Shown piece by piece: positions 3 to 40,449 of a stretch of DNA of 64,000 nt. Origin of the DNA: Candidatus Nomurabacteria bacterium (GTDB taxonomy: Bacteria > Patescibacteriota > WWE3 > UBA101185 > UBA10185); assembly GCA_020631855.1 (NCBI GenBank), contig JACKGU010000002.1, forward strand, positions 89,188 to 153,187. The letters run 5' to 3'. Made by a program: the position numbers and the translations under genes. Each line of letters opens with the position of its first letter. Positions within the stretch are counted from its first letter, which is position 1. Under the pieces are notes generated by a model. It did not search any database and was not told where the DNA came from. It saw only the letters and a list, made by a program, of their open reading frames with translations.

Positions 3-221
3 ACGCAGTTATTCAAGGATTTCTTTAAAGGAAGGCTCTATAGCTTTTCTATCCTACTCTTAGGCTTAGTTGGAGCTTTTGTTGAAGTTTATCTACTTTT
101 TATTCAGCACGTAATCCTTAAGGAATATTGTTCGTGGTGCTTGTTGTTGGGTATAGTCGCTCTCGTTGTATTTGTTCTTTCGAATTTTTACTTTTTTTCT
201 AGAAATTATTTTGATAAATAG
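3..221 (+). CDS. 3' end of a membrane protein (VKOR/DsbB-like?, partial at window edge)
   Basis: Frame 3 is open from the window start to TAG at 219-221. Hydrophobic TM segments with a CSWC (CxxC) motif inside the TM region. Not in the ORF track because it is short and partial. Confidence 0.35.
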   Translation, partial: TQLFKDFFKGRLYSFSILLLGLVGAFVEVYLLFIQHVILKEYCSWCLLLGIVALVVFVLSNFYFFSRNYFDK

Positions 222-2093: not shown

Positions 2094-2136
2094 TTTAGTG
2101 ATTTAGTATCTTGTTTTTTATGGTTTATGTCGTTGG

Positions 2137-2160: not shown

Positions 2161-2288
2161 CTTCAAAAGCGAGCTTTGGGGGCCTCAACCCGAAGCATCC
2201 CCCTCCACCACTCTTTAGTAGGTCGGCTTTGCCAGACTTTTACGCCCAGTGTTTCGCGCCGATCGCCCTAAGAGCAGTAACGGTACAA

Positions 2289-2486
2289 TTAGTAGTCATC
2301 GTCATCGCTGTACAGGCCTTCGTCCATATCATCGTCAGGTTCGTCCAATTCGCCGGATTCTATCATATCGTCGTACACCCTTTGATACAGTTCCCAATCC
2401 ATGTCACTTGCATCTTCAGCGGGAACCCATGATGCGTCTCTTAACAAATTTTTTCTGATTTGTTCAGGAGTTAACACAAGTATCAC
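2289..2486 (-). CDS. Small acidic hypothetical protein (65 aa)
   Basis: ORF with a strongly acidic C-terminus (DEPDDDMDEGLYSDDDDY). Followed by an unusually GC-rich ~160-nt segment at 2127-2288. Confidence 0.3.
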   Translation of the reverse strand: MILVLTPEQIRKNLLRDASWVPAEDASDMDWELYQRVYDDMIESGELDEPDDDMDEGLYSDDDDY

Positions 2487-2648
2487 CCCCTCTGAAAGTC
2501 AGTAATTCTTTTTGATTTATAAAAGTATTACAAAGCATTTATTATTTGATCCTACCGTCTTCCCTGATTCTATATTCAGGCTTGATTGTAGAAAATTGCC
2601 TTAAAAGGCACATTTCTTTGGTAATTTTTGCATTAAAAGTTAACTAAA

Positions 2649-9141: not shown

Positions 9142-9870
9142 TTACTCAACAGCTATTGTTTCGCTTAGAGTTGCTATTACAACAAGTCTTTTTAATGTTG
9201 TTCCGGCCGGCCAGCATGTCATTAGTGTTAAGGTGTTTTTATCCTCGTAGCCTTCTAACGTCTTTAGATATGCTAGTTCTTTTGGGCCAACTATTTTAAC
9301 CTCAGAAACCGAATACTTATTTATAAAGTTTTTTTGTGATTCTGAGAACTTTAGATATATTTCATCAGTCGGTGCAAGCTTGTAGAGCAAATAGAATATT
9401 GCATTGTATTTATTTACATTAATAAGCCCGTCTGTTGAATGCGCAAAAACGAAGGTGTTAGTACCGAGGGACAGCCCCGAGGTTGGATAATCACTGCCTT
9501 TGGCGTGAGCTACTCCGTATTTTAAGGCCGTTCCATATTCCTCAGAATTAAACGGATCAATATTTTTCAATATTTTTGCTTTTGCGCCAATTTTGGGTAT
9601 GTAGATTGAATCTTCGTTGTATGGCTGGAAATTACTTAAAAAATCGTTAATGTTTTTATTTGTTGAGTCTTTAGAGATAGTTTGTATGTTTGCACCGTAA
9701 CCTTTTTTGTTAACAAGGTAGTTAAGCTCCTCGCCAAGAACCGGCAGGAACAATAACGCCAGTCCTATAAGTGAGAGTGAAAAGAGTGCGGCTCCTGTGT
9801 GCAGGAGCCGCCTCGACCCATTACCATTCGATTTATTTTTGACTATTTTTAAGTCGTTTCTTTGCCCCAA
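9142..9870 (-). CDS. Sortase family transpeptidase
   Basis: 242 aa. N-terminal TM and catalytic TLxTC motif (LTLMTCWPAG). Lies immediately downstream of the LPATG protein gene. Confidence 0.8.
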   Translation of the reverse strand: MGQRNDLKIVKNKSNGNGSRRLLHTGAALFSLSLIGLALLFLPVLGEELNYLVNKKGYGANIQTISKDSTNKNINDFLSNFQPYNEDSIYIPKIGAKAKILKNIDPFNSEEYGTALKYGVAHAKGSDYPTSGLSLGTNTFVFAHSTDGLINVNKYNAIFYLLYKLAPTDEIYLKFSESQKNFINKYSVSEVKIVGPKELAYLKTLEGYEDKNTLTLMTCWPAGTTLKRLVVIATLSETIAVE

Positions 9871-18345: not shown

Positions 18346-18350
18346 TCTTT

Positions 18351-19166
18351 CTATTTGTGGTTAGTCGCCATAAGCCTTTTGTTGTAATATTGGCAAATAT
18401 CGCAATCTTGCGAACTTTCAGGTATCGATGTTTTGTCTATGCACGCCCTAATATTCTCTAGTTCTTTTTCAACCCAAAAGCAGTCCCCTCTTACCTCTTC
18501 TATAGATAGCAGAAATTCAAGTTTGTTATCAAAATAGTCCGGATCTGTCTGAGCGTTTACAAAAACTATATATCCGGTGTCAGAGACATTAAAGCCGTTT
18601 TGTCTGAATATCCATTGATAAACTTCTATTTGCCTTTTATAGCCTTGGTTATACTTGTATTCCATAGTAAGTTTATAGCTGTCAGAAGTTGCTACAGCTT
18701 TATAGTCCACAATGTAGAGAGTTCCGTTGTCGTCTCTCCATACATCATCGATTTTTCCGCACAGCTCTATTCTAGTCGGGGCGTGCTCGAAACCAAAACC
18801 ATAATAGTTCCCTTCTTCGTCTCCTCGCCAATCAAAAAAATCTTTGTGCTTATAAGGGATAAATTCCAAACCCATCTTCTTTATAGAGGGATGTGTTTGT
18901 TGAAGATTTCTATAATAATCAAATTCTTTTTTCATTAAGGTATCGACCGCAATATTAAGGTTAAAAGGTATGTGTGGGGCTTTTACTCCCAATACTTTCT
19001 GAAGGTAAAAGCACCTAGGGCACTTTAAGAAAGTATCGAGCATCCCTCTGCTAATACGCGTGAATTCCCCGCTTCTCGGTTTATATGTGTACCATCTGTT
19101 TTTGTTTTTATCTATATACATGTATTTTCGACTCTTCTTTATATTTTTCCACGGCCTAGAATGCAT
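18351..19166 (-). CDS. Cas4/RecB-like PD-(D/E)xK nuclease with Fe-S cluster cysteines (stand-alone)
   Basis: 271 aa. N-terminal CPRC, the LYIVDYKA (D..EYK-type) nuclease motif, and C-terminal CxxCx(n)C (CIDK...CDIC). No CRISPR array nearby. Confidence 0.6.
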   Translation of the reverse strand: MHSRPWKNIKKSRKYMYIDKNKNRWYTYKPRSGEFTRISRGMLDTFLKCPRCFYLQKVLGVKAPHIPFNLNIAVDTLMKKEFDYYRNLQQTHPSIKKMGLEFIPYKHKDFFDWRGDEEGNYYGFGFEHAPTRIELCGKIDDVWRDDNGTLYIVDYKAVATSDSYKLTMEYKYNQGYKRQIEVYQWIFRQNGFNVSDTGYIVFVNAQTDPDYFDNKLEFLLSIEEVRGDCFWVEKELENIRACIDKTSIPESSQDCDICQYYNKRLMATNHK

Positions 19167-19321
19167 TGCTGCTTCTTGAGATTTAGATAAGTAGGATGAC
19201 GCATGTTTATTGTATCAAGCATATATTCGGCCTTCAATGTTTTGAGTTGGTCCATTGAGTTTTATACCCTATGTTGCATGCTGAACCTAGTTCAGTCCTT
19301 ATGAAAAACGGTGGTTAGATT

Positions 19322-20110
19322 TTAAATCTCTCCCATAACAATCTTTAGCGGAACGTGGTCTGATCCAGAAATATTTTTTAAATGCGTGAGTTCTTGAACT
19401 GAGCCTTTAAACCTGATGTCTAAAAAGAAGTAGTCTATTCTCCACCCTTTATTTTTTTCTCTTGCGATGTTGTTGATTGAGTATGGAAACCAGCTGTAAG
19501 ATTCTTTTTCCGGGTATAAATATCTGAAAACGTCAAAGAAATTGTTTTCAATTACTTTGTCGACCCATGCTCTTTCTATCAAGGAGAACATGGGAGAGCC
19601 TTTATTCATTTTTGGATTTTGAAGATCAAGGTTTGTATGCGCCACATTGAAGTCCCCAGCTAACACCACTTTCTTTTTTTGCTTTAGTTCGGACGCAAGC
19701 TTTAATAAAGATTCGCAAAAACTCATCTTATACTCTAGCCTTGAGAAGTCTGCTCGGGGGTGAGGTACATACGTATTGATCAAGAAAAAAGACGGGTATT
19801 CAGCAATTTGAACCCTTGCTTCTTCGTCGAACCCTTTTATTCCCAGCCCATTTGTTACTTTTATTGGAGTGTTTTTAGATAGTATAACTAGACCTGAGTA
19901 TCCTTTTCGCGTCGAAGCCGCAAAATTATAGGCGTTATAACCATAAAATACAGGGAACAAGCAGTTTTGCAGTTGGTCGAAGTTTTCTTCAGATATTTTG
20001 CTTTCTTGAAAGCAATATATATCTGATTTGTCGGTTTTTATAAAGTCAGCAAGTCCCTTATTTAAGCAAGACTTTAATCCGTTGATGTTCCACGATACTA
20101 TGTTCATCAT
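19322..20110 (-). CDS. xth: Exodeoxyribonuclease III (AP endonuclease, ExoIII/APE1 family)
   Basis: 262 aa. MNIVSWNINGL ... QESK ... GDFNVAH ... SDHVP signature. Confidence 0.9.
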   Translation of the reverse strand: MMNIVSWNINGLKSCLNKGLADFIKTDKSDIYCFQESKISEENFDQLQNCLFPVFYGYNAYNFAASTRKGYSGLVILSKNTPIKVTNGLGIKGFDEEARVQIAEYPSFFLINTYVPHPRADFSRLEYKMSFCESLLKLASELKQKKKVVLAGDFNVAHTNLDLQNPKMNKGSPMFSLIERAWVDKVIENNFFDVFRYLYPEKESYSWFPYSINNIAREKNKGWRIDYFFLDIRFKGSVQELTHLKNISGSDHVPLKIVMGEI

Positions 20111-27820: not shown

Positions 27821-28316
27821 TATACTTTTTAATCCAAGAATTTAGATCCATTTTGTTGTTATACAATATGGGATCCTCATCCACCTGTGGTTCTTGCCAA
27901 AATCCATATGCTGTATCCAGTCCTTTTCGGCTCAGTTGTCCCCTGGCCTTTGTTGTTTCATTTTCCTCCCACCTTTTTTCAATCTCCTCTTTAGGAGTAT
28001 TTATATAAACAAGTTTATGGTTTACACCACAGTCTTTTGCAATTGCTCTTGCAGTGTTTCTTTCGGATCTTTTTAGATGTCCCATATCAAATATCACGCT
28101 TTTTCCAGCCCTTAGGTCTTTTTTTAAATTCTCATAAGCTTCTGAGTAAACAAGATTCCAATCGTCTTGAGTCATCTCATCCGTATCCATTTTGTATTTG
28201 TCTATTTGGTTATCTACTGAACAAACTTCAAATTTGTGCCGTTTAACAAGTTCCCTTGTTAATGTGGATTTACCACAGTACGGAAGTCCGCAAAGGATAT
28301 ACAGTGTCGGCTTCAT
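27801..28316 (-). CDS. P-loop kinase (AAA_33 / polynucleotide-kinase-like ATP-binding protein)
   Basis: Walker A LCGLPYCGKSTL. Confidence 0.6.
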   Translation of the reverse strand: MKPTLYILCGLPYCGKSTLTRELVKRHKFEVCSVDNQIDKYKMDTDEMTQDDWNLVYSEAYENLKKDLRAGKSVIFDMGHLKRSERNTARAIAKDCGVNHKLVYINTPKEEIEKRWEENETTKARGQLSRKGLDTAYGFWQEPQVDEDPILYNNKMDLNSWIKKYITSDEN

Positions 28317-29167
28317 TTGACTTCTATTCCAAATTCACTAAACACTTTTTGTATGTGTTCATAAAAATCTGGGTAAGCCATATAATCCTTTAGTTCGTTA
28401 AGTTTTACCCATTTGTATTCTTCAAGTTCCTCATCTTGTAGTGCAATATCGTCATCTTTTCCAGTAAAAGCCAATATAATAAAGCTTTGTTCCTGTCCTC
28501 TCATTAATTTCCCTGATTTCTTTATATTCTTTTCAATTTCTTTAAGAGGCCAGTCGTAAGAATATTTGTGTTGACTATTGTGTAAAACCTCAAAGGCGTC
28601 TGTACCTAATTCTTCTAACAATTCTCTTTTTACAGCTTGTTCTGGTGTTTCGTTTTCATCAATTCCGCCACCAGGACAATCCCAAACTCCACTGTTCTTC
28701 TTTAAAACCATTAAAATTGAATCCCTGCCTTCATTTAGAACTAATGCATAAACTCCTTGCCTATATGGTAGTTTTGCTTTGTCATTTGCACTGATGTGAT
28801 CTTCTAAGTCCCATCCTGGTTCTGAATAATACTCAAGCCAAGTTTCCTCGCCTTCTGCCCAATGCGGGTTTCCTGGTTTAATTACATAGCTTTCACCTTC
28901 TTTAAGATCAATCGTTTCTTTTCCTACCTGCAGTGTTAATGTACCTTTCGTAACCTTATAAGTTTCTGTTGTCTTGTAGTGTATATGGGGAATACTTTTA
29001 TCAATTACTGCTACCGCATTACTGTAATCAGGGTGTTCAGATGCAGGATCGATTTCACAAAGTATTTCTGTGGTGTTTTCCTCATCATTTTTGAATATAG
29101 CCTTACCTGGGTATTTTTTATTTAGTTCTGAAACTACTTGTGATACATTCATACGAAAATTATACAA
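28313..29167 (-). CDS. NUDIX hydrolase with an N-terminal cupin-like domain
   Basis: Nudix box GGGIDENETPEQAVKRELLEELG. The track start is TTG at 29167; the probable ATG is at 29152 (MNVSQ), with TATAAT 6 nt upstream. Confidence 0.8.
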   Translation of the reverse strand: MYNFRMNVSQVVSELNKKYPGKAIFKNDEENTTEILCEIDPASEHPDYSNAVAVIDKSIPHIHYKTTETYKVTKGTLTLQVGKETIDLKEGESYVIKPGNPHWAEGEETWLEYYSEPGWDLEDHISANDKAKLPYRQGVYALVLNEGRDSILMVLKKNSGVWDCPGGGIDENETPEQAVKRELLEELGTDAFEVLHNSQHKYSYDWPLKEIEKNIKKSGKLMRGQEQSFIILAFTGKDDDIALQDEELEEYKWVKLNELKDYMAYPDFYEHIQKVFSEFGIEVK

Positions 29168-29224
29168 TAGTTCGAATTCCCTGATGGCCCATACTCGGAA
29201 ATGCTGTTGTTAACGGAAGAAAAT

Positions 29225-29245
29225 CCTGGCTGGAAGCCTGGCACA
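29225..29245 (+). repeat. Degenerate tRNA-Gln 3'-end-like att repeat (e), left boundary of the integrated element
   Basis: TCCTGGCTGGAAGCCTGGCAC, with AGTTCGAATTCCCTGATGGCCC at 29169-29190 (compare tRNA-Gln GGTTCGAATCCCTGTCCCCC). Confidence 0.4.
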
Positions 29246-29313
29246 CATACAGAATGGCTAATTGGCTTGATTTAATAAATGCCCCAGAGCTAGTTTATGC
29301 TTATGCCGAAAGC

Positions 29314-31026
29314 CTACTTGTTAAATAGTATCTTCTTTGAAAGAATAAAAACTTCGTCAAACCTCTTTTTAAGGAAATCATTACGAGGCTCTACTTCCCC
29401 AAATTTCAATGCAAGTAAAAAATGCTTCATAGGTTTATATTTGAATTCATTTCTCATAAGGCGATTAACAATTAAATCTCCAAACGAATACTCTGTATTA
29501 GTATAGGCTTCCATCATTTCAGTCTCTTCTGCGCTTAATATCGTTAATGATTCAACGTTTTTACCATTAAGATATTTATTATTTTCAATTAGTGGCAATA
29601 TCTCTTCAATCCAAATTAAGTCTGCTTGTGGGAAAGGGTTTATAGTTACTATTATTGGAACAAATGCCTTTATGTCTTTAGATTCAACTCCCTCTAATCT
29701 AAACTCTTTTCTTTTAAAGTCTTTTATACTTCTATCAATTTGCTTAACACTATTTAATACAATTTTCTCTAAATCTTTTCTGTAGCCTTCCAGGTCTCCG
29801 TTTATTGCGGTGTCTACCATTTTTAATTTTGAAGTGTTTATTTCAGCAAAAAAAGCAACATTTTTATATACAATTATAATATCTGATGTTTTTTTATGAC
29901 TTTTTCCATATGTTAATTCATTAAAAACCTTATATTCGTTATCATTACCCAACATCCTTTGGAACAAATTCTGTTCATACTCTTCGAAAAGTTCTCCATA
30001 GAATCGTGCAAGTCTATATCTTTCACTTTTTTCTAAAGAATCCCAAATGTCCCAAAATATCCCAGAAGAAATTCTTTCTTTTACAAAGCGAACACTTGTT
30101 GGCATATATACATCTTTACTTATCTTTATTAAAGGTTTTTGCCTAAGAGTTATGAAGTCATAAATCTTATTAGATGAGTCTAAAGAGTTGGATAATGTCA
30201 GTTTGTTAAGATATTTTATAGCCTTATATTTTGAATATTTGAGCTCGTTAAAATATACATTTTTGTTTATCTCAAAGTTATTCAAATCAATTTTGTCCTT
30301 ATAAATATTTACGTTTGCATAGTGGGCCAATAATGAAAAACCTAAAACATAGGCTTCTTCTAAGGTGTGATTCTTTGCTTTCTTGTATAGGGATTCTAAA
30401 TCTATATAATTTTCAGACTTTATAGCTCTGTCGCTTTTCGCAATATTAAAAAGTATTTCATAGTTTCTTGTAAATAAATATCTAAACTGCTCTGTAGAAT
30501 TAAAATATGCATTCCGAATAACTTCTTTTAATAGTGCATCTAATTGCAAGCGCCTATTGGGATTATCCATGTTTTTGTCGCTTTCATATTCTCTATTTAG
30601 CAGGTCACCGCAAGGGATGACACATTTTTTAAGGTATAAATCAAAGTTAGCTGTGTCGTTTAATTTCTTCTTAGCATATGGATTGCCGTGTTCCAATGTA
30701 AGTTTAATTAGGTGAAGTAATTGCTGTTCGAAGAAGAGAAATCTATCTGGGCTTGATTTGAAAACCTTTAATATTTTGCTTTTATCCTGTTCATTGTGAA
30801 ATAGTTCGTTTATTAAACCGTGTTGTAGCTCTCTATTCATATGTCCATGATTTTCCAACACATTTCCTAATTTACATGTTGCAGCTAATACTTCTCGTTT
30901 ATTAAGAGATTTAATTGTTTTTATAACCTCTTGCTCTGTGATTTCCTCGTTAAATATATCTCTATATGGCATCATAATCGCAAAGCCGTCACTGAGTGTA
31001 TAGTTTTTGTTGTTACTTAGAGGCAT
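29314..31026 (-). CDS. Large hypothetical protein (570 aa) co-transcribed downstream of the LexA-like gene
   Basis: Overlaps the lexA-like stop by 14 nt. No recognisable catalytic motif. Confidence 0.5.
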   Translation of the reverse strand: MPLSNNKNYTLSDGFAIMMPYRDIFNEEITEQEVIKTIKSLNKREVLAATCKLGNVLENHGHMNRELQHGLINELFHNEQDKSKILKVFKSSPDRFLFFEQQLLHLIKLTLEHGNPYAKKKLNDTANFDLYLKKCVIPCGDLLNREYESDKNMDNPNRRLQLDALLKEVIRNAYFNSTEQFRYLFTRNYEILFNIAKSDRAIKSENYIDLESLYKKAKNHTLEEAYVLGFSLLAHYANVNIYKDKIDLNNFEINKNVYFNELKYSKYKAIKYLNKLTLSNSLDSSNKIYDFITLRQKPLIKISKDVYMPTSVRFVKERISSGIFWDIWDSLEKSERYRLARFYGELFEEYEQNLFQRMLGNDNEYKVFNELTYGKSHKKTSDIIIVYKNVAFFAEINTSKLKMVDTAINGDLEGYRKDLEKIVLNSVKQIDRSIKDFKRKEFRLEGVESKDIKAFVPIIVTINPFPQADLIWIEEILPLIENNKYLNGKNVESLTILSAEETEMMEAYTNTEYSFGDLIVNRLMRNEFKYKPMKHFLLALKFGEVEPRNDFLKKRFDEVFILSKKILFNK

Positions 31027-31633
31027 GCCTTAGAAGTCCCAGAAATTTTCCTCTAATTTCTAGTTCCTTGGGATAAATATTGTTTAGTTCTGGATTTCTT
31101 GGTTCCAGTCTTATCTCACCCCTTTGTTTGTAAAATCTCTTAAGTGTTGCCCCGTTTTCTGTAATGGCTACAACGGTTTCCCCATTTTCTGCTGTATTTT
31201 GATGTTTTACTAACACAATATCTCCATCAGCAATACCATCATCAATCATACTGTTTCCAGATACTTTTAAGGCATAACACATCTCCGGTCTTCTAGGTAA
31301 CATAGTGGAAGGAACATCTATCGGCTCTGGAATCTCAACTGGTTCAATACCTGGACCCGCAGAGATAGTTCCTAGTAATGGTATTTTTATGAGTTCACTA
31401 CCTGTATTAAGCAATTTAATGCCTCTATTCAATGTAGTTTTTTTTATGTAACCTTTTTCTTCCAAAGCATCTAAATATTGAGCCACAGAGGAATCTGATT
31501 TGTAACCAAATTGTTCCGCTATTTCCTTATATGTGGGGCAAAATCCATGTTTAACAAAATGTTTTTCGAGGAAATCTAAAATATCTTTTTGCTTTGGAGT
31601 TAGAGGCAATTTTTCTTGACCTTTGTAATCCAT
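31013..31633 (-). CDS. lexA: LexA-type repressor (N-terminal winged-HTH plus C-terminal S24 peptidase Ser-Lys dyad)
   Basis: 206 aa. GNSMIDDGIADGDIVLV (catalytic Ser) and ATLKRFYKQRGEIRLEPRNPE (Lys), collinear with E. coli LexA. A TACTCGTA-TAA-TACTCGTA direct repeat and TATTAT lie 6 nt upstream of the ATG. Confidence 0.7.
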   Translation of the reverse strand: MDYKGQEKLPLTPKQKDILDFLEKHFVKHGFCPTYKEIAEQFGYKSDSSVAQYLDALEEKGYIKKTTLNRGIKLLNTGSELIKIPLLGTISAGPGIEPVEIPEPIDVPSTMLPRRPEMCYALKVSGNSMIDDGIADGDIVLVKHQNTAENGETVVAITENGATLKRFYKQRGEIRLEPRNPELNNIYPKELEIRGKFLGLLRHASK

Positions 31634-31744
31634 ACTCGTATAATACTCGTAATTAGTCCAACAGTCAAATGGACAAAAAAGGCAACAGACTTTCTTGCCC
31701 GTTGCCCTTCTTACGTACTTTAAGTTTATTAGTTAAGCAGATAT

Positions 31745-32011
31745 ATGGCAAGAGTATATGCGGAAAGGCATGTTATGGCAAAACAAATACACGTTACGCA
31801 TAACAAAGAAACCGGAAGGTGGCAAACCAGAGATGCCGGGTCGAAAGACGTTAATTCATCTCATAGAACAAAGGATTTAGCAGTCGAAAGAGCAGTTCGT
31901 GATGCAAAACAAACTCGCTCTGAGGTATTTATCCATAATAAAGATGGAAAGATATCTGATAGGGATAGTTATGGTAATGACCCTAGAAGTGTCAAAGACA
32001 GGGTTCATTAA
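31745..32011 (+). CDS. DUF2188-like small protein
   Basis: GRWQ ... IHNKDGKISDRDSYGNDP matches the DUF2188 pattern. Divergent from lexA. Confidence 0.5.
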   Translation: MARVYAERHVMAKQIHVTHNKETGRWQTRDAGSKDVNSSHRTKDLAVERAVRDAKQTRSEVFIHNKDGKISDRDSYGNDPRSVKDRVH

Positions 32012-32098
32012 TTAGTTTCTTTTGACTGTTGGCTAATTTCTATTCAGAATAGAGTTCATATGCTTATTTATAAAATTATATGATGTATTATAAAAACT

Positions 32099-33031
32099 AT
32101 GCGAGAAAATATTAAACTCATATCCCTTTTTAGTGGGTGTGGGGGCACAGATTTAGGATTTGAAGGTGGTTTTACTTTTAATTCAAAAAAATATGAAAAA
32201 TTACCTTACGATTTAGTTTGGGCAAATGAGATAAATAGTAAAGCCTGTATTACTTTTAAGGAAAACCTTAAAAAGGATATAGTCTGTGATGATATATGGA
32301 ATGTTGATTTAGATACACTACCCGATGCAGATATAGTTACTGGTGGTTTTCCATGCCAAGACTTTAGTGTTGCCGGATTACGTAAAGGATTTAACTCTAA
32401 AAGAGGCCTTTTATATTTGGCAATGCTTAATGTTGTAAATAAAGTTAAGCCAAGAGTTTTTGTTGCTGAGAATGTTAAGGGTTTGTTATCCATGGACAAA
32501 GGATGTGCTATTCAGAAGATAGTTTCAGATTTTTCACAAGCTGGTTCTGGCTATAAAGTCACAACACACCTATTAAAAGCCCCTGATTATGGGATTTCTC
32601 AAACAAGAGAGCGTGTTTTAATCGTAGGGGTAAGGTCTGATATTAATATGAATTTTGAACCTCCAGTACCAACTACATTAGATACACCTGTTCCTGTTTC
32701 AGATATATTAAGAGATTTGGAAGACCTAGCTGAGGGAGACATACCTAATCATTATTGGTCAAAAGCGAAACTATATCCAGGTAGACAAGGAAACATTACA
32801 ATAGACCCGAGTAAACCGGGCCCAACGATGAGAGCCGAACATCATGGGAACATAGAATTCCACTATAATAAGGGTAGAAGGTTAAGTGCACGTGAAGCTG
32901 CTAGGATACAGTCTTTTCCCGATGAATTTATATTCTATAATTCAACTTCTGATGCCTATCGCCAGATAGGTAATGCAGTACCCCCTGTATTAGCCTGGCA
33001 TATTGCAAAAACATTACTCCCATTTTTTTAA
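32099..33031 (+). CDS. DNA (cytosine-5)-methyltransferase
   Basis: 310 aa. Motif I FSGCGG, motif IV GFPCQDFS, ENV, C-terminal QIGNAVPP. Confidence 0.9.
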   Translation: MRENIKLISLFSGCGGTDLGFEGGFTFNSKKYEKLPYDLVWANEINSKACITFKENLKKDIVCDDIWNVDLDTLPDADIVTGGFPCQDFSVAGLRKGFNSKRGLLYLAMLNVVNKVKPRVFVAENVKGLLSMDKGCAIQKIVSDFSQAGSGYKVTTHLLKAPDYGISQTRERVLIVGVRSDINMNFEPPVPTTLDTPVPVSDILRDLEDLAEGDIPNHYWSKAKLYPGRQGNITIDPSKPGPTMRAEHHGNIEFHYNKGRRLSAREAARIQSFPDEFIFYNSTSDAYRQIGNAVPPVLAWHIAKTLLPFF

Positions 33032-33088
33032 GAATAGTGCTTAGATTCTTTTGATGTTAGACTTGTAACAGTAGGACATTTTACTGTT

Positions 33089-34201
33089 ATGGCTAATTTA
33101 AGAACATCTTTAAGAGAATTAAGCTTCATCTATGGGCTAATTGCCCATGATTTTTCTGTGCCCAAATTTAAGGACTTCTGTAGTACCCTAGCTGATAATG
33201 GTATTGAACATGGCTTAGAATCTAAAGATTCAGTTTTTTATAGCAAAGTTGTTTTTGACCAAATTGTAAAAAATGGTATACGACTAGGAATATTTGTAAG
33301 AGATAATTTGAAAATAACTAAAATAGATACTCTTAACTGGACTGGAAATGATACTCAATCAGATACTCCTTACGATGTAATCGTTAACAATATTCCAATT
33401 TCACTTAAAGAGGACAGTTTTATCTTAGAAAATATGGGCTTATATAAATTACTTTCTCTATTAACTGAAAACACTTATAAAAGAGGCGAGGTACACATTT
33501 TCAAGAAATTTGCCCCAAGAGAGTATGAAGAATGGTTTGATGTTGCTTGGCACAGTATGTTCTATAAAATAAGGAGACATGGTCCTTGGGTATATAAAGG
33601 TAAAGGATACACATCTACAATAAAAGAACAGGATAATAAAATAGTATTTATCTATAAATCACCCGAAAAGACACTGAGTTGCAGTCTTCCCTTCAAGTCG
33701 TACGTCTCTTTAGATGAGTTTGAAAAAGAAACAAATTCAATTCTTAGAGAAAAAGTTTTTTCAAAATGGATTTCTAGTATTGGGGCATATGTAGGGGAAT
33801 ATAAGGTTTATAAGAATATTTGTTCTACGAAGGCGGGTGAGGAATTGACCAAATTTATACATAAAAACATTAAGGTTGAATCCTTTTCTAGAATTTTTAG
33901 AATTTTGGAAACACCTTATTATTATGCAAAAGTTACAAATAATAGTATGGAATTATATAAAGTTCCAGGGAAACAAGATTTTAAGAATAACTTTGAAATT
34001 ATGGCATTTGAATATTCAGTGCCCTCATCACAATTAAACCTATTAACTACGATAAAAAACATTAAACTAGGCACCGAAATAACTTTTAGAAATGAATTAC
34101 GTTTTTCACATGGTCAGTTTAATGGTACTCCAGAAGCAAAATTATACTACACAAAAGACTCAAGCTTAGAAGCAATATACGAATTAGTCGCTACTCAATA
34201 A
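33089..34201 (+). CDS. Hypothetical protein, candidate cognate restriction endonuclease
   Basis: 370-aa ORF 57 nt downstream of the MTase on the same strand. No detectable motif. Called by position only. Confidence 0.3.
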   Translation: MANLRTSLRELSFIYGLIAHDFSVPKFKDFCSTLADNGIEHGLESKDSVFYSKVVFDQIVKNGIRLGIFVRDNLKITKIDTLNWTGNDTQSDTPYDVIVNNIPISLKEDSFILENMGLYKLLSLLTENTYKRGEVHIFKKFAPREYEEWFDVAWHSMFYKIRRHGPWVYKGKGYTSTIKEQDNKIVFIYKSPEKTLSCSLPFKSYVSLDEFEKETNSILREKVFSKWISSIGAYVGEYKVYKNICSTKAGEELTKFIHKNIKVESFSRIFRILETPYYYAKVTNNSMELYKVPGKQDFKNNFEIMAFEYSVPSSQLNLLTTIKNIKLGTEITFRNELRFSHGQFNGTPEAKLYYTKDSSLEAIYELVATQ

Positions 34202-34236
34202 TATTTCCTGATATAATCAAATAGTAATTAAACACA

Positions 34237-34322
34237 GCTTGGCAGCTTTACTTAAACATGCTTAAAAAAGCAATGGACCCATGAAGGGGCAACCTTTCCA
34301 TAGGGTCTATTGCTGCCAAGCT
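34237..34322. repeat. Nested inverted repeat (multi-layer hairpin)
   Basis: Outer CAGCTTGGCAGC/GCTGCCAAGCTG, inner CAATGGACCC/GGGTCTATTG, innermost GAAGG/CCTTT. Lies 3' of the putative REase gene. Confidence 0.6.
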
Positions 34323-34546
34323 GTGGATACCGGAAGGTTGTCCCTTTATGTTTGGAATAAAAAGCATTAAAACGAAATATTTTGACTTCATTTTCTATTG
34401 GCTATATCAAATGCCACTTTATACTCCAAAACTCAATATAACGTGTTCTGGGACTTCTGGTAGCTATATTTTTTCTACTCTGTCTCAGATATTTAGCGTG
34501 GTTGAGCCAATAAGTATAAATTTCTATAAATTAAGGAATAAAGAAA

Positions 34547-34867
34547 ATGAATAAAAAAGAACAAATTGCATGCCCTAAGTGTGGTCAGTTTAGAGTTGTG
34601 ACTAAAGATACTGCTTCTGCAGCGTTGTTCGGCATTGGTTGTATGTACTTAACGCTTGTCCCAATTATAGGGATAGTTTTAAGTTTGATTGGTTTAGGTA
34701 TTTTTGGTTTGGTTATTGGTTTTGCATTAGGTATTGGTTTATTAATCTCTGCATTAGTTAAGAAAACAAAAGGAAAAGCCACATTTACCTGTCTTAATTG
34801 TGGTTATAAGTGGGAACCTGTACTAGATAAAGCAAATAATTCCAAGGGGAATAAAAATAAACAATAA
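34547..34867 (+). CDS. Zinc-ribbon membrane protein
   Basis: CPKCG ... two TM helices ... CLNCG. Confidence 0.45.
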   Translation: MNKKEQIACPKCGQFRVVTKDTASAALFGIGCMYLTLVPIIGIVLSLIGLGIFGLVIGFALGIGLLISALVKKTKGKATFTCLNCGYKWEPVLDKANNSKGNKNKQ

Positions 34868-35210
34868 TAAAGTTAGGCAACCTGAATTTTTAGCTAACTT
34901 ATCTGCACTGATAGTGGTTCTATTGTAAACTTTGTTATAGATAGCTTTTTTTGGATTGGTAACAATCCCCATTCCTCTTGGGACTCTAACTTTGGAACGA
35001 ACCATTCTTTTTACAGATGTTCTTGCTGATAGTCTTCTTTTTAATGAGGGTGTTCTAACGCCAAATTTCATATCTAAATTATATACATATATGTTTGAAA
35101 TGTCAGAAAAATTGTGTGTGAAATGAGAGAAAATGAAGGGGTTATTTTTTGTATAAAGTGGCAGAAATGACAAAAAAACAGGGGGTACAAATTAATAAAA
35201 CCTTAGAGAA

Positions 35211-35882
35211 ATGAGAGAAAGTAAGTGGTTTGTTTTCATCATATCCTTGTACCTAAATATTGTAGTAACAATAAATACCTTAATGTCACAGCACATTTTT
35301 AAGATATCGTACTTTAATTACATGAAACATGTAAATGAAGATACAAAACATAATATATTAGATGAAGTTTTTTCCTTTGAAGATAAAACAAAGAACGATA
35401 TATATTTCGCAGATGACCGAAGATTTAAAATATATTCTGGTTTTACTAAGCTTTATCATGCTTTAGCTCATGCCATTTTGGCTGATAATACTCTTACTGC
35501 CAGAGAGATTAAGGTATTACTTCTATATATTAGGGTCGGATATGGTTGCCAAGTTAGGGATGAGTACGGTGTGAAGAAACACGCTAGAAGCGTATATTTT
35601 TGTCCAAAAGAAGTATCAAAAATTTTAAATTATAGAACAAATGATGTTTCAAAAGTTTTTAAGTCTTTGTTTGATAAAGGTTGGTTTGATTTTTTGTATT
35701 ACAAAGAAACAGGCAGAACAAAAATTCACCCACAAATAGTTGATAATGTACTAGATGTAAAAACAGGTGCAGGTTGGGATGAAACGTTTAATATTGAACT
35801 TAGAAATGTAATTTCTAGAAATCTAGGGTTCAATCTGGTACCTGTTATCTATTCAAAAGACCCTTTCAAGTTACTCAAATAG
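35211..35882 (+). CDS. Hypothetical protein (possible winged-helix/replication-like, weak)
   Basis: 223-aa ORF in the integrated element. The probable start is an internal Met (MKHVNEDTK). Confidence 0.35.
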   Translation: MRESKWFVFIISLYLNIVVTINTLMSQHIFKISYFNYMKHVNEDTKHNILDEVFSFEDKTKNDIYFADDRRFKIYSGFTKLYHALAHAILADNTLTAREIKVLLLYIRVGYGCQVRDEYGVKKHARSVYFCPKEVSKILNYRTNDVSKVFKSLFDKGWFDFLYYKETGRTKIHPQIVDNVLDVKTGAGWDETFNIELRNVISRNLGFNLVPVIYSKDPFKLLK

Positions 35883-36150
35883 TTTTAATACATATACCAT
35901 TAAAAAATATGATATTCCCTAATACATGATTTATGCAGGTTTTGCAGACATATTTACATTTATTAAGTATCAGTTAACGAGAATTACGCAATATTTTACT
36001 TGAAACGTGTAATTTTTAAGATTTATTTGCTTTAAAAACAGCCAAAAAGCATGGTTAGTATATAAAAAAGATAAGTAAAATAGTTTATGTATAGATAGTA
36101 AGATGAAGAGTTGTAAAAATGTAAAAACATGGAAGGTATAATGTGTTTAG

Positions 36151-37098
36151 ATGAAAAATGTAGATGAAATTAAATCAAGGAAACCAACATGGTCACTTTC
36201 TGAGGTAATGATAAAGTCTGGATTGTTTAGTGAAAAAGGTGTTACTTGGTATAAGGATAAACCAGAAACTGATAGAGATGTATTAATTAGAAGCTATTGG
36301 GATTTAGTATACAAATCTGGCATGTTAGATTTCCTTATAAAACGTGAGAGAGAAGTTTTAGGTATACCAAACAATCTACGTGCTTTAAGAAGAAAGTTTC
36401 CTTTAGTGGCTTATAGAACTGATATAGGTGACCCAAACGAAGTAAATCTTGAACAAGGTATTGATAACTATCATGGTTATTATGGAAGAGACCCTAAGCT
36501 AGTAGCATCAATTGATGATAGTGTTAATAGAATTTTGGATGATTCAAAACTTCCGCCAATGTATTTCAAGGTAGTGCTATTTTTATTACTACGGGGGCAA
36601 CTAATTAAAGATGGTGAACTTTTTTTCTATACACGGTTAATGGACTCTATAGCTTTAAAAGAGGACTATGATAAACGTATCTATAACCATTTTACTCAAA
36701 ATGAATTTATTCAATATGCCGGATTTTACTTAATGGCTATTTCAACAAAACTTACAAAACAAGATTTTAGAGAAAGAATGTCCAATTTGGAAAAAGTAAT
36801 ACCTAATTTTAATAGAAAATATCGTCCAATTAGAAAATGGAATACTTACTACAAAATAATTAAGGTTATATTGAAAAGTTATAATATTGAACAAAAAACA
36901 AATCATGGGGAATCGGATAGCATGAGTGAAGGTTTAATGCATACGAGTAAATCTTTGATTTATGATTTATGTAATAAAGATTTAACTAAAGAACAGGAAC
37001 AAAGAGAAGCCTATAAATTGCGAAAAGACATTGAACGCCTCAAAAAAGAATACCCATTCCTAGTCGAAATGTTCCCTCACCTACAACAAAAAGCTTAA
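36151..37098 (+). CDS. Hypothetical protein
   Basis: 315-aa ORF, no recognisable motif. Confidence 0.4.
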   Translation: MKNVDEIKSRKPTWSLSEVMIKSGLFSEKGVTWYKDKPETDRDVLIRSYWDLVYKSGMLDFLIKREREVLGIPNNLRALRRKFPLVAYRTDIGDPNEVNLEQGIDNYHGYYGRDPKLVASIDDSVNRILDDSKLPPMYFKVVLFLLLRGQLIKDGELFFYTRLMDSIALKEDYDKRIYNHFTQNEFIQYAGFYLMAISTKLTKQDFRERMSNLEKVIPNFNRKYRPIRKWNTYYKIIKVILKSYNIEQKTNHGESDSMSEGLMHTSKSLIYDLCNKDLTKEQEQREAYKLRKDIERLKKEYPFLVEMFPHLQQKA

Positions 37099-37136
37099 TG
37101 TCACAACCCTAAATTTTTAAGCTGTAAGCTGATGGC

Positions 37137-37400
37137 ATGAATATGAAATCATGCCTAACAAATGAAGACCCTAATATCTTTTCAACAAGTGATTTGCATT
37201 TAGCAATTTCCTTATCTTTTTTTCACAATATTGTTGGATTAGATAATTCATCACCAAACAGAATCAAATTTCTTTTTGATTACTCTGCATCTCTAGAAAA
37301 AACAATTGAAGATTATTGGAATGGAAAACTCCTAGTAGACCCAAAAGGTTTTAGTAATAAATTATCCGAGTTCAAAACTCGTATTCGAACAGGTCTTTGA
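37137..37400 (+). CDS. Hypothetical small protein
   Basis: 87-aa ORF. Confidence 0.3.
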   Translation: MNMKSCLTNEDPNIFSTSDLHLAISLSFFHNIVGLDNSSPNRIKFLFDYSASLEKTIEDYWNGKLLVDPKGFSNKLSEFKTRIRTGL

Positions 37401-37401
37401 A

Positions 37402-37569
37402 ATGGAGCTAAGTAGTAATTTAGTTAACGAATTGAAACAGATTCTCAAAGAAGAGTTTGGATTGGACTTAACATCCGAGCAAATTTTGGCTCTTGGTTCA
37501 AACCTAACCCAACTTTTTGAGGCTTTGTTAGAGATTGTTACTAAGAAAGGAAGTGATTCAAACATGTGA
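37402..37569 (+). CDS. Small helical protein (55 aa) immediately upstream of the integrase; candidate recombination directionality factor
   Basis: ATG at 37402; MELSSNLVNELKQILKEEFGLDLTSEQILALGSNLTQLFEALLEIVTKKGSDSNM. Not in the track (<60 aa). Confidence 0.3.
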   Translation: MELSSNLVNELKQILKEEFGLDLTSEQILALGSNLTQLFEALLEIVTKKGSDSNM

Positions 37570-37646
37570 AACCCAAGTCAAATGCTACTTACAAAGTAGC
37601 CCATGCGTTGCATTATGTAATAAATTGATATGAAAGTAATATTGAA

Positions 37647-39308
37647 ATGAAAAAATACGAAAATAAAACAGCTGTTATCCTCTGCCGAGTAAGTTCAAAA
37701 GAACAAGAAAAAGAGGGTTATTCTCTACCTTCCCAAGAAAAATTGTTAAAAAGTTATAGCGATAAAGAGAAGCTAAATGTTGTTAAGACTTATACGTTCT
37801 CTGAATCTGCTAGAGCCTCTTCTGAAAGGGTGTATTTTAAGCAAATGATGGAGTATGTAAAAAAGCAAAACATACACGTTATTGTTTGTGAAAAAGTAGA
37901 CCGCGCAACTAGAAATTTAAAAGATACTCAGGTTTTATACGATTGGCTAGAGGGCAACCCAGATAGACAAATACACTCTGTAAAAGATTCAATTGTTCTA
38001 CATAAAAACTCTAAATCTCAGGAAAAGCTAAATTGGGATATTAGAGTAATTTTTGCAAAGAACTATGTAGATAACCTATCTGAGGAAGTTAAAAAAGGTC
38101 AAATTGAAAAGCTAGAGAAAGGTTGGTTACCTACAAGTCCTCCTTTAGGTTATAAGACAATTGGTGAGGAAGGTAAAAGAATTCATATTCCAGATGAAGC
38201 CACAAAGCACTTTGCTAAAAGTCTTTTCGAACTATATGGAAGTGGTACCTATACATTATCTCAATTAGTGGATTTATTGTTTGAAGAGGGCCTTAGAACA
38301 CCGACTGGTAAAAAATACTCAAAGAGTATGCTTTATAGATGTTTACAGAATCCTTTTTATATTGGTTACAACAGATGGAATGGAAATGATTTTCCAGGTA
38401 ATCAAGAAACATTTATTAGCCCATCTTTATATGAAACTGTTCAATCAAGACTAAAAAGAAATGGTTCTCAAAAATTCATTAAACATAACCACTTATTGCG
38501 TAGCATGGCTGTCTGTAAAGAATGTGGAGGAACAATTACATGGGAACTAAAGAAAGGAACTGTCTACGGCCATTGTGGTCGTAGGCAGGGCTGTTCCCAA
38601 ACAAAATGTGGTAAAGAACATGAATTTGAAGAAAAGATTATAAATGAGATGGAAAATCTAGTAATCAAGAATAAACGTGTCTTAGATTGGGTAAGCAAAG
38701 CTCTTAAAGAGAATCACAAAGATGAAATTAATGCCTACAACTACTCGGTTGAAGAATTAACTAAACAAGAAGAAAAAATAACAGAAAGACTTAGCCAAAT
38801 TTACGATGATAAGTTAGATGGCAAGATAGATGAGTCTTTTTATAACTTAAAAATGGAACAATACACCACTGAAAGAACTGAAATTCAAAAACAAAGGACA
38901 AGATTAGCAGATAGAAACACAAAGTATTATGAGATAGGTTCCCTAATATATGATATCGCTCAAAATGCGCCAAAGATTTATAAAGAGTGTAAAGATGTTG
39001 ATAAAAAGAGAAAAATTTTAGGAATAATCTTCAGAACTTTTCAACAAGAAAATGGCGAACTTGTAGAATTGCAGTTATCAAAGCCTTTTGAAACGCTCAA
39101 AAAAGCAGTAAGTATTACTAACAGTTCGAACTTGGTTAAAAATGAGGAGTTGCAAAAAGAGATTTTAGAACTCGGGGATTTTGTTGCTGTGGAAGCAAAT
39201 AAAGAGTCTTTTTCTGATGATTGTTCTCCATGGCTGGGGGACAGGGATTCGAACCCCAATTTTCGGGACCAAAACCCGACGTGCTACCCTTACACCATCC
39301 CCCAATGA
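37647..39308 (+). CDS. Large serine recombinase (integrase)
   Basis: 553 aa. N-terminal resolvase catalytic domain (AVILCRVSSKEQ), recombinase domain, zinc ribbon CKECGG...CGRRQGCSQTKCG, coiled coil. The last ~25 codons are antisense to tRNA-Gln. Confidence 0.85.
   Translation: MKKYENKTAVILCRVSSKEQEKEGYSLPSQEKLLKSYSDKEKLNVVKTYTFSESARASSERVYFKQMMEYVKKQNIHVIVCEKVDRATRNLKDTQVLYDWLEGNPDRQIHSVKDSIVLHKNSKSQEKLNWDIRVIFAKNYVDNLSEEVKKGQIEKLEKGWLPTSPPLGYKTIGEEGKRIHIPDEATKHFAKSLFELYGSGTYTLSQLVDLLFEEGLRTPTGKKYSKSMLYRCLQNPFYIGYNRWNGNDFPGNQETFISPSLYETVQSRLKRNGSQKFIKHNHLLRSMAVCKECGGTITWELKKGTVYGHCGRRQGCSQTKCGKEHEFEEKIINEMENLVIKNKRVLDWVSKALKENHKDEINAYNYSVEELTKQEEKITERLSQIYDDKLDGKIDESFYNLKMEQYTTERTEIQKQRTRLADRNTKYYEIGSLIYDIAQNAPKIYKECKDVDKKRKILGIIFRTFQQENGELVELQLSKPFETLKKAVSITNSSNLVKNEELQKEILELGDFVAVEANKESFSDDCSPWLGDRDSNPNFRDQNPTCYPYTIPQ
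39231..39304 (-). tRNA. tRNA-Gln (anticodon UUG)
   Basis: Sense: TGGGGGA-TG-GTG-TAAGGGTAG-CAC-G-TCGGG-TTTTGGT-CCCGA-AAAT-TGGGG-TTCGAAT-CCCTG-TCCCCCA-G-CCA. U1-A72 is typical of Gln. CCA is encoded. Confidence 0.85.
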
Positions 39309-39462
39309 ATACATAAATACCCGAATATTATAACATCAAGTTATTGTTTTTAGCTATAACAGTCATCTTTCGCCAGCCTCAAGTACTTTAAATGCAAATA
39401 TAGCCTCTTGGTAGTGCTTTCAGTACGGTGTAATTTCTCTCTGATCTGTGTAGAATATTTGT

Positions 39463-40449
39463 ATGGGGACGGATATTGCCACAAGAATTAAAAGTGCTTC
39501 AAATACTGCAGTTATAAATAAGGTGCGATATTTAACAGCTACTGTTCTTGAAATAACACTCTCCCCTGCTCCGGTATTTATTCCGGGGCAATTTATAAAT
39601 GTGCTCATACCAAATAACGAAGTCCCTAAAGCACTTGTTCCGGGCAATTTAGTAGGAAAGCTGGGTATTGAAAATATTTTAGTTTCAAAAGCTGGTTTGC
39701 AAAACGGCTTCTCCGGCCCTGATTTTACAAGAAATCCAAAATTTCGTTCGTACTCTATCTGTACCACGAACTACAGTTCAAACACATTTAGGCTCATAAT
39801 TTCAGTTGGGCATATCGGTTTAGGCTCTTTGTATTTTAAGAGTTTAAAGCAGGGAGATTCTATTTCGTATATCGGGCCAACAGGAAAATTTAGTTTTCAT
39901 ACATCCGCTATCTCTGTCGACGTAAGTTTAGCCGATGCACAGAAAAATCGTCCGCGTTCTGCAAGCGTATCGGCGTCTTACCCGTCTCCTGTTTTGGATT
40001 CTGCTTCTAGCGAATCCTCTGTTGGCGATAGAGCAGTTTTTATAGTAACGGGCACCGGCATTTCGCCCATTATATCTATGCTGGCTTATTCTAAAGAGCA
40101 CGACATTAGTGGAGATTTTAAGCTATATTGGGGCTTGAGATCAGAGAAAGACATTTTTTATCTTAGTGAGCTTGAATATTTTTCTCGGGAATTAGGCTTA
40201 ACTTACAAAATTTGCCTCTCAAAGCCTTTAGGGTCCCCGGCGGGCCGAATCCTCGGCGAATCGAATTTTGCTGATGGCAGGGTAACAGAAAATATCTTAG
40301 GGCTTTTTAATTGCGATAAGTATTTAAATTACACATATTATGTTTGTGGCAACCCCTCGGCTGTGTTGGACGTTATTGAACTGCTGAGAAAAAAAGGCAT
40401 ATGCGCTTCTAACATCTATAGCGAGGGCTTTACTCAAGCAAGTAGTTAA
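39463..40449 (+). CDS. Ferredoxin-NADP reductase-like oxidoreductase (FAD-binding FR-type plus NAD-binding domain)
   Basis: RSYSI ... GPTGKF FAD-binding motifs and IVTGTGISP NAD-binding motif. Contains a Ser-rich low-complexity insert. Confidence 0.65.
   Translation: MGTDIATRIKSASNTAVINKVRYLTATVLEITLSPAPVFIPGQFINVLIPNNEVPKALVPGNLVGKLGIENILVSKAGLQNGFSGPDFTRNPKFRSYSICTTNYSSNTFRLIISVGHIGLGSLYFKSLKQGDSISYIGPTGKFSFHTSAISVDVSLADAQKNRPRSASVSASYPSPVLDSASSESSVGDRAVFIVTGTGISPIISMLAYSKEHDISGDFKLYWGLRSEKDIFYLSELEYFSRELGLTYKICLSKPLGSPAGRILGESNFADGRVTENILGLFNCDKYLNYTYYVCGNPSAVLDVIELLRKKGICASNIYSEGFTQASS

Follow-up and report, generated by a model that had tools for sequence, protein, structure and literature searches.

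The integrated element and its interrupted integrase gene

We analyzed a 64,000-nt stretch of DNA from a Candidatus Nomurabacteria bacterium (assembly GCA_020631855.1, contig JACKGU010000002.1, positions 89,188-153,187, forward strand), hereafter the window. It contains a 10,004-bp integrated element that ends at a tRNA-Gln(UUG) gene and encodes, at that end, a large serine integrase whose reading frame continues into the tRNA gene. Transfer RNA genes were called with ARAGORN and Rfam, and protein families were assigned with Pfam, PHROG, PADLOC and NCBIfam/TIGRFAM profiles. ARAGORN places tRNA-Gln(ttg) at 39231-39304 on the minus strand, and Rfam matches a tRNA at 39234-39304 (59.2 bits), so that 39231-39233 correspond to the encoded CCA. 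This intact gene is the target of integration and constitutes the B' arm of the bacterial attachment site, attB. The integrase open reading frame (ORF) occupies 37647-39308 on the plus strand and specifies 553 amino acids in the integrated state; it is encoded by the element as far as 39230/39237 and by the antisense strand of the tRNA gene beyond that point. The remaining genes include a LexA-type repressor, a restriction-modification pair and a 55-aa protein gene next to the integrase gene.

Every testable hallmark of a large serine recombinase is present in the enzyme. It matches Pfam Resolvase (1.3e-17, residues 9-159) and Recombinase (5.3e-14), its residues R14-V15-S16-S17 align with the near-invariant RVSS catalytic motif of 24 homologues, and C290, C293, C310 and C316, which form the zinc ribbon, are invariant. 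A coiled coil is represented by long paired helices at 337-416 in the AlphaFold2 (AF2) model of a homologue. The nearest named NCBI families are CcrB and XisF. The original prediction, made from the DNA sequence of the window, had described a 553-aa large serine recombinase with about 25 codons antisense to tRNA-Gln and running across the attachment core; these matches and motifs bear it out. We count 26 such codons, WLGDRDSNPNFRDQNPTCYPYTIPQ, which are the antisense of the entire tRNA, and the core at 39231-39237 lies inside the ORF.

The ends of the element were obtained from unoccupied copies of the site. We looked up the two flanking host genes by exact protein sequence and recovered both occupied and empty contigs (contigs and loci are given as L numbers), whereas exact-protein look-ups of the window integrase and of the NUDIX ORF with its TTG start gave no match. 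Empty sites with identical flanks are present in L099 (GCA_020631795.1, a 629-kb contig) and in L100 and L101 (one JGI and one ENA contig), where the NUDIX gene directly adjoins tRNA-Gln and a 328-aa oxidoreductase gene. In the alignment with L099, empty-site positions 9601-9775 correspond to window 29059-29233 and positions 9769-10050 to window 39231-39512, with an overlap of 7 bp. The insert thus comprises 10,004 bp between two copies of a 7-bp core, TGGCTGG: the left copy, in attL, lies at 29227-29233, and the right copy, in attR, at 39231-39237. The core is the antisense of the 3' end of tRNA-Gln(UUG), positions 76-70, that is, CCA, the discriminator base and three bases of the acceptor stem. 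No long direct repeat is found at the element ends apart from the 7-bp core, which fits the expectation for a serine integrase. The tRNA-Gln sequence in the window is identical to that of the empty site, so the target gene is unchanged by the insertion. The boundaries initially proposed, 29246 and 39308, require correction: the left one lies about 19 nt too far in, and the right one is the stop codon of the integrase ORF and not the end of the element.

Occupied sites are found in L093, L096 and L105, which are colinear with the window over the left or the right junction at 99.5-100% identity. Several Logan contigs break precisely at the core: L090 ends at 29233, L102 begins at 39232, and L103, L104, L107 and L108 have the same layout as L102. 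Breakage at the core in contigs of several sequencing runs indicates that occupied and empty alleles coexist in single samples, for example SRR12358675, SRR17907852 and SRR14234040. Each flanking protein is represented in NCBI by three copies, every one under the name Candidatus Nomurabacteria bacterium, and the spacing of their accessions, as judged from the numbering, is consistent with two occupied and one empty metagenome-assembled genome (MAG). The same element, 99% identical over 2 kb, is also present in L111, where the tRNA-Gln differs slightly and the downstream flank is unrelated. We take the core breaks, the mixed alleles and the L111 copy as signs of recent mobility. The 29-39 kb region has a G+C content of 0.29-0.37, compared with 0.37-0.40 in the flanks. 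The claim of an integrated element is thus upheld by the empty site with identical flanks, which the original prediction had proposed to seek in relatives, and by the two alleles in the same population; its alternative of an ancestral core locus, with gene order conserved in the absence of attachment sites, is contradicted by the lack of the insert in a relative with identical flanks. As a separate observation, tRNA-Gln in the empty site lies about 62 nt upstream of, and on the same strand as, a cupin-NUDIX gene (window 28313-29167, minus strand). Integration separates the two by 10 kb of foreign DNA, so NUDIX expression could change.

Because crossover takes place at the extreme 3' end of the tRNA, all 26 antisense codons are host DNA. 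When 37647-39230 is joined to 29227 onward, as in a circle, an uninterrupted in-frame ORF of 561 codons results, ending ...CSPWL-EAWHTYRMANWLDLINAPELVYAYAESLLVK*. By this reconstruction, the integrase ORF itself contains the attachment site of the free element, attP, with 31 codons left before the natural stop, and integration splits the gene. The detached 3' end, int-C (29233-29328, plus strand), consists of the 31 codons EAWHTYRMANWLDLINAPELVYAYAESLLVK (29233-29325) and the stop TAG at 29326-29328. Its first ~25 nt double as the P' arm of attP, and the P arm lies in the last element-encoded codons of the integrase. The predicted circle junction reads ...GTTCTCCATGGCTGGAAGCCTGGC... In the integrated copy, the native 31 codons are replaced by the 26 antisense-tRNA codons; many relatives add just 2-4 residues.

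The circle would encode a 561-aa integrase in which a disordered linker is followed by a conserved helical tail. This expectation is based on an AF2 model of a homologue in the attP state (42-sequence alignment, mean predicted local distance difference test score [pLDDT] 79), in which a disordered 28-residue linker, 488-515, holds the junction and leads into three short helices (pLDDT 63-82). The conserved tail pattern is W..(F/Y)R...W......PE....Q...LL. All recognized domains (resolvase, recombinase, zinc ribbon and coiled coil) lie upstream of the split and are intact.

tRNA targeting and detached tails across the Patescibacteria family

We compared the window integrase with the best 120 of its 1574 homologous proteins and with 80 genome loci, nearly all from Patescibacteria MAGs, whose integrases are 37-49% identical. 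Among the 120 proteins, 59 terminate in tRNA-antisense residues, which invariably follow the frame W/L-L-x-x-x-D-S-N, and 14 have the conserved tail at their end (for example, P0098, ...CPVWRRVWNDFRTLKWIEEIDYPEIIIKQVKQLLQAQQ); many of the remainder stop 2-4 residues past the junction. ARAGORN finds an antisense tRNA under the integrase 3' end in 42 of the 80 loci. The targets are mostly tRNA-Asn(GUU), with Gln(CUG/UUG), Asp and Leu also represented. Five loci in which ARAGORN calls no tRNA have a group I intron on the minus strand directly past the integrase stop (Rfam RF00028, 69-100 bits; L007 11604-11833, L040 11619-11826, L044 11589-11794, L064 11574-11881 and L034 11612-11912). Their targets appear to be intron-containing tRNA genes, and the integrase tails there look tRNA-derived. 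One further locus has a partial tRNA match. Hence at least 47 of the 80 integrases read into tRNA genes, five of these through the intron-containing reading. Large serine integrases had been expected to use tRNA genes only occasionally, and the target of the window copy had been singled out for that reason. The target itself is confirmed; judging from these sequences, members of this Patescibacteria integrase clade target tRNA genes as a rule, and the window copy is typical in this respect.

To locate detached tails, we built a profile hidden Markov model (HMM) from the sequences following the junction and used it to search the window and 88 related loci, each translated in six frames. About 30 fragments were found at E < 0.1, all on the integrase strand. 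They lie 3.5-10.8 kb upstream of an integrase, many of these integrases reading into a tRNA, with the exception of those in L015 and L039, which are in the attP state. The window fragment, 29236-29295, matches at E = 8.7e-6, and equivalents of the window int-C are present in about 20 related loci. Of 23 tail fragments, 22 are open over 32-42 codons; the exception, L007a, has a stop at the junction. Their frames are open although such tails lack a start codon and cannot be translated while integrated. The architecture thus belongs to the clade as a whole, and the detached tails are maintained.

Cores in the related loci were placed with the tail HMM and the tRNA T-loop as anchors; a longest-common-substring search was abandoned after giving mostly spurious matches. 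In the resolved elements, which measure 3.5-11 kb, both junctions read ...GCTC or a close variant up to the junction, and the shared cores comprise 4-9 bp (GCTC, TGCTC, TGGCTCG, TGGCTGG, TTGGTGC and ATATGGCGG). Tandem serine-recombinase elements occupy one tRNA in L032, L069, L073 and L016. In L032, for example, recombinases at 1650-3068, 10001-11575 and 18322-19740 precede tRNA-Asn at 19774-19848. The internal integrases of such arrays have hybrid junctions, some with a complete tail from the next element, which suggests repeated integration at the same tRNA end. Relatives in the attP state also exist (L109, L110 and L004). The viral contigs of IMG/VR yielded a single close relative, and in that collection the family is therefore not associated with phages.

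Aligned at the junction, the 40 tRNA-derived B' arms read cg..g...GGAtTCGAACC from that point, with GGA at +9..11 and the T-loop sequence TTCGAAC at +12..18. The P' arms (n = 21) read GC....TGGGACGA.TTTCGAAC, with GGAC at +9..12 and TTCGAAC at +17..23. The inner motif is thus in the same place in attP and attB, and the outer TTCGAAC is 5 bp further out in attP. For the LI integrase, motifs for the recombinase domain and the zinc-ribbon domain have been described with a 5-bp shift between attP and attB (Rutherford et al., PMC3783163). By sequence comparison, the arms of the present family fit this 5-bp shift of the zinc-ribbon motif. In the P arm, inside the integrase gene, GTCC at -14..-11 mirrors GGAC about the TC of GCTC. 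From this symmetry, TC of GCTC is the predicted central dinucleotide, and TG (39235-39236) its counterpart in the window.

Since the P' arm overlaps the first ~8 tail codons, the tail residues 'DDFRT' are largely a translation of that arm. In codons 3-10 (the P' arm), the information content at codon positions 1/2/3 is 1.08/1.12/0.79, and several third positions are near fixed, a pattern pointing to constraint at the DNA level. In codons 11-32 (the distal tail), the corresponding values are 0.65/0.94/0.38. Here 20 of 21 sequences have W13 and P20, and 19 have L30 and L31; third positions are free. Near-invariant residues combined with free third positions argue for purifying selection on the amino acid sequence of the tail. 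This conserved distal part stretches 24-90 nt past the expected end of the attP arm.

Two integrase isoforms and their possible roles

A 55-aa acidic helical protein is encoded immediately upstream of the integrase gene (37402-37569, plus strand). In 70 of the 83 loci in which co-conservation was counted, a relative of it is encoded at most 2.5 kb upstream of the integrase and on the integrase strand; the protein has no Pfam or PDB relative. The original prediction had proposed it as a recombination directionality factor (RDF); from its co-conservation, it is a credible candidate for an integrase partner or RDF. Next to it, a DUF5659 gene (37137-37400, plus strand, 87 aa, Pfam 1.4e-6) has relatives upstream of the integrase in 38 of the 83 loci. 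These conserved positions define a backbone of DUF5659, the 55-aa gene and the integrase, with a left half of variable cargo.

We favor, at a probability of roughly 60%, the interpretation that this is a nonviral integrative element whose serine integrase gene is split by integration at the 3' end of tRNA-Gln(UUG), giving two integrase isoforms that differ in activity. The integrase crosses over inside TGGCTGG and restores the tRNA exactly. The tailed 561-aa integrase, made only from the free circle, would be the integration form. Integration detaches the tail to the attL end, leaving the integrated copy to encode a tail-less integrase, and this form, co-expressed with the 55-aa RDF candidate once the LexA-type repressor is cleaved, would carry out excision. 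The position of attP would thereby serve as the element's built-in record of its own integration state. As the 55-aa gene precedes the integrase gene in the same orientation and may be co-transcribed with it, a state-dependent input would be needed to set direction, and the position of attP would supply one. More tentatively, and at less than even odds, the tail may act as a directionality gate that blocks or replaces the action of the 55-aa factor on circle-made integrase and permits integration alone; its loss on integration would then arm the enzyme for excision. If so, this would be a self-splitting integrase family without precedent in Bacteria or among serine recombinases, found widely in Patescibacteria and invariably at tRNA 3' ends.

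Several observations weigh against the favored interpretation. We infer both the difference in activity and the role of the tail. Exact searches of JGI metagenomes and IMG/VR for the element's attP junction and integrase 3' end gave no match, and the polymorphism at the site could reflect integration events alone. No terminal overlap that would signal circularity was found on 16 small contigs, including the attP-state L004, L109 and L110. L015 and L039 carry intact-tail integrases inside large chromosomal contigs; tandem arrays can explain such integrases, and account for these two in part. The window P' arm matches the family consensus weakly, with TACAGAAT in place of TTTCGAAC, and the central dinucleotide was assigned with arm symmetry as its sole basis. 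Finally, the close tail pair L109/L015 differs by 4 synonymous and 4 nonsynonymous codons, too few to be informative.

Neutral compaction would account for the overlap of attP with the integrase 3' end by the small size of the elements, merely 3.5-11 kb, with a dispensable tail and a change of isoform that has no regulatory effect. The P' arm alone accounts for the first 8 tail codons, the tRNA-derived residues number anywhere from 2 to more than 26 and are plainly not under selection, and the one close tail pair has equal numbers of synonymous and nonsynonymous changes. We nevertheless regard this explanation as unlikely, given that the tail is conserved with a coding signature 24-90 nt past any plausible attP arm, that 22 of 23 tails keep an open frame of uniform length despite being untranslated while integrated, and that a helical tail is predicted at moderate to good confidence. 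Alternatively, the tail could be a degradation or stabilization signal, in which case the level of the integrase, and not its mechanism, would differ between states. There is precedent in mycobacteriophages of clusters G, N and P, in which integration removes a C-terminal tag from the repressor and the integrase is also tagged (PMC3694055), and some tails have ssrA-like ends (P0118 ...KLAA, L039 ...KAAA and P0008 ...LRA). Most tails, however, lack an Ala-rich or LAA-like end (...LLVK in the window; QAQQ, QAYN and LNLI elsewhere), and the conserved W, PE, Q and LL are internal and helical and not at the extreme C terminus, which makes a proteolysis tag improbable.

The location of the split bears on a further explanation, namely that the integrase is 'suicidal': the truncated form would be inactive, and a locked copy could be excised only by the complete integrase of a related element, either incoming or neighboring. 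Archaeal SSV-type integrases set the precedent (PMC8371274), and in the tandem arrays at one tRNA (L032, L069, L073 and L016) internal integrases regain a tail from the next element. In the present family, by contrast, the catalytic and DNA-binding domains all lie upstream of the split and are intact, whereas the archaeal cut falls between essential domains, and the detached tails intact in about 20 loci argue for regular cycling. We therefore consider inactivation very improbable and retain the interpretation of two isoforms that differ in activity.

To our knowledge, attP lies beside the integrase gene in classical serine integrase systems, and the characterized serine integrases target protein-coding genes or intergenic sites. 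The window integrase resembles phiC31, Bxb1, A118/LI, SPbeta, CcrAB and XisF in its resolvase domain with the RVSS serine, its recombinase domain, its Cys4 zinc ribbon and its long coiled coil, and the element shares with the classical systems a short core identity, a 5-bp arm shift and a small partner gene adjoining the integrase gene. It differs in that attP is inside the integrase ORF, so that integration alters the protein, and in its clade-wide targeting of tRNA 3' termini, an extra C-terminal region of ~100 aa (linker plus tail) and elements of 3.5-11 kb that lack virion genes.

Closer parallels for the position of attP are found outside the serine integrases. In archaeal integrases of the SSV1/pTN3/pT26-2 type, attP is in the integrase gene, which is partitioned when the element inserts into a tRNA gene, and integrase and attachment site form a compact module; a 2021 review states that such self-disrupting recombinases are exclusive to Archaea (PMC8371274). 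The present system is similar in having attP within an integrase gene that is split on integration into a tRNA. Unlike the archaeal enzymes, which are tyrosine recombinases inactivated when Int(N) is separated from the catalytic Int(C), it involves a serine recombinase in a bacterial host, and only a tail of 31-35 aa, after all known domains, is removed. In the mycobacteriophages BPs, Brujita and Charlie (clusters G, N and P), the repressor ORF contains attP close to its 3' end, the targets are tRNA genes, and the viral and prophage C termini differ (PMC3694055). Here too the integration state would be read out through a protein isoform; in those phages, however, a tyrosine integrase splits the repressor and removes a proteolysis tag, whereas here the integrase itself is split. 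The LexA-type repressor gene of the element is intact, ~6 kb from the integrase gene and ~1.7 kb from the attL core at 29227-29233, and so does not fit integration-dependent immunity. Engineered integrase-RDF fusions show that a C-terminal module on a flexible tether of ~30 residues can reset directionality, the linker having 32 residues in a phiC31 fusion (bioRxiv 10.1101/2025.05.02.651858). The natural tail is comparable in its predicted architecture, a disordered linker of ~28 residues and a helical module; unlike the fusions, which are artificial and carry a full RDF, its module comprises ~33 aa and is present where integration, and not excision, is expected.

Our literature search found no account of a serine integrase gene that contains attP, of a serine integrase clade that targets tRNA genes or of Patescibacteria elements of this type; most subscription journals were outside the search, and an earlier description is possible. 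The choice of direction by serine integrases is an active structural question, to which an enzyme whose C terminus is edited by integration would be a new solution. The family would contradict the statement that self-disrupting recombinases are confined to Archaea (PMC8371274) and would extend self-splitting from tyrosine to serine recombinases. It also adds a large, coherent set of small mobile elements to the poorly known mobilome of Patescibacteria and provides a simple rule for finding element ends: the integrase reads into a tRNA 3' end, and the detached tail motif precedes it on that strand. The family further contains dozens of natural attP/attB pairs sharing one highly conserved target, the tRNA T-arm and acceptor end; these pairs should be useful for studies of site recognition by large serine recombinases and for its re-engineering.

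Cargo genes and additional observations

The left part of the element begins with a leftward operon. A 206-aa LexA-type autocleavable repressor (31013-31633, minus strand) overlaps by 14 nt a gene for a 570-aa protein (29314-31026, minus strand). The repressor scores 165 bits against TIGR00498, above the equivalog cutoff of 110.95, as well as matching Pfam Peptidase_S24 (3.7e-27), LexA_DNA_bind (1.7e-16) and a PHROG transcriptional repressor family. By inspection, its translation contains an Ala-Gly site, Ser in SGNSM and Lys in LKRF (Ser/Lys dyad), so that the predicted protein combines a winged-helix DNA-binding domain and an S24 domain with cleavage-site residues, as in LexA. Between lexA and the rightward genes is a divergent control region (31634-31744) with promoter-like sites. 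The best such sites of the element, which are consensus matches only, lie at 31616-31644 on the plus strand (11/12) and 31668-31640 on the minus strand (10/12). The 9-mer ATACTCGTA occurs twice, 11 nt apart, in window 31631-31650, over the best -10 hexamer, and this repeat may be an operator.

The 570-aa protein has no match in Pfam, PHROG, PADLOC or NCBIfam, and a word-indexed homologue search gave nothing; a full HMMER search returned 1091 relatives at E < 1e-3, mostly of 550-630 aa. Its AF2 model (pLDDT 91.7, predicted template modeling score 0.91) has a predicted PD-(D/E)xK-type nuclease domain in the C-terminal half. The top Foldseek matches in the PDB are all restriction-fold nucleases (Nt.BspD6I, the R.BspD6I small subunit, Can2 and BstEII), weak at E >= 2e-3, and the protein matches the Can2 nuclease domain profile at E = 0.005. 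On this structural modeling, the LexA partner, a member of a large unannotated family, is a candidate SOS-controlled nuclease.

Rightward of the control region, an 88-aa DUF2188 protein (31745-32011, plus strand; Pfam 3.5e-16) also matches the PADLOC candidate defense family PDC-S16 (1.7e-22). It is followed on the plus strand by a Type II C5 cytosine DNA methyltransferase (32099-33031; Pfam DNA_methylase 1.3e-75, PADLOC MTase_II 1.2e-93) and a 370-aa Type II restriction endonuclease (33089-34201; PADLOC REase_II 3.9e-65), the latter match being full-length (residues 1-365 against profile positions 1-380 of 387). These adjacent genes have the profile matches of a Type II restriction-modification system. 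The profile searches thus agree with the original prediction for the LexA-type repressor, the DUF2188 protein and the methyltransferase with its candidate endonuclease.

Further to the right, and again on the plus strand, a small membrane protein of 106 aa (34547-34867) has two CxxC pairs and a hydrophobic core visible in the translation; its zinc-ribbon matches are weak and all under cutoffs. A 223-aa protein (35211-35882) is weakly similar to the N-terminal winged-helix domain of phage replication protein O (Pfam Phage_rep_O 3.4e-5, 24.7 bits, below cutoff; TIGR01610 5.4e-4; PHROG replication initiation 0.0065); L109, a relative in the attP state, has an unambiguous Phage_rep_O gene. A 315-aa protein (36151-37098) has no match in Pfam, PHROG, PADLOC or NCBIfam, and a search upstream of the integrase in 82 related loci gave no relative. 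None of 10 element ORFs matches a PHROG structural, packaging or lysis family. With no virion genes and a length of 10,004 bp, the element is an integrative island, as originally proposed, and not a temperate phage. Identity as an inovirus was considered, as small integrated elements with serine recombinases exist (PMC6813254), and was rejected with no Zot/pI-like or rolling-circle Rep match.

Three observations concern the relatives. Most have a GC-rich hairpin and U-run on the tRNA-sense strand, 15-20 nt past the tRNA 3' end and antisense to the integrase linker codons (L051 at ~11500-11550, L037, L041, L029, L071, L072, L075 and about 20 others; minus strand). The L051 hairpin is GGAGCC-GAAA-GGCUCC-UUUU, and the stems vary by compensatory changes; from its position, this element-supplied hairpin probably replaces the tRNA terminator after integration. 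No terminator-like hairpin was found in the integrase linker of the window element. The LOOT RNA motif (RF03000) is present inside two related elements, L040 (8223-8333, minus strand, 78 bits) and L025 (7634-7744, minus strand, 68 bits), ~1.7-2.3 kb upstream of the integrase, and was not matched in the window element. Lastly, many contigs with a Patescibacteria-type integrase (L009, L007, L010, L019 and others) are labeled Gammaproteobacteria, Pseudomonadales, Bathyarchaeia or Methanoperedens, one example being 'Pseudomonadales bacterium isolate HK-STAS-PATE-16'. These are probably mislabeled or mis-binned records and not a sign of broad host range.

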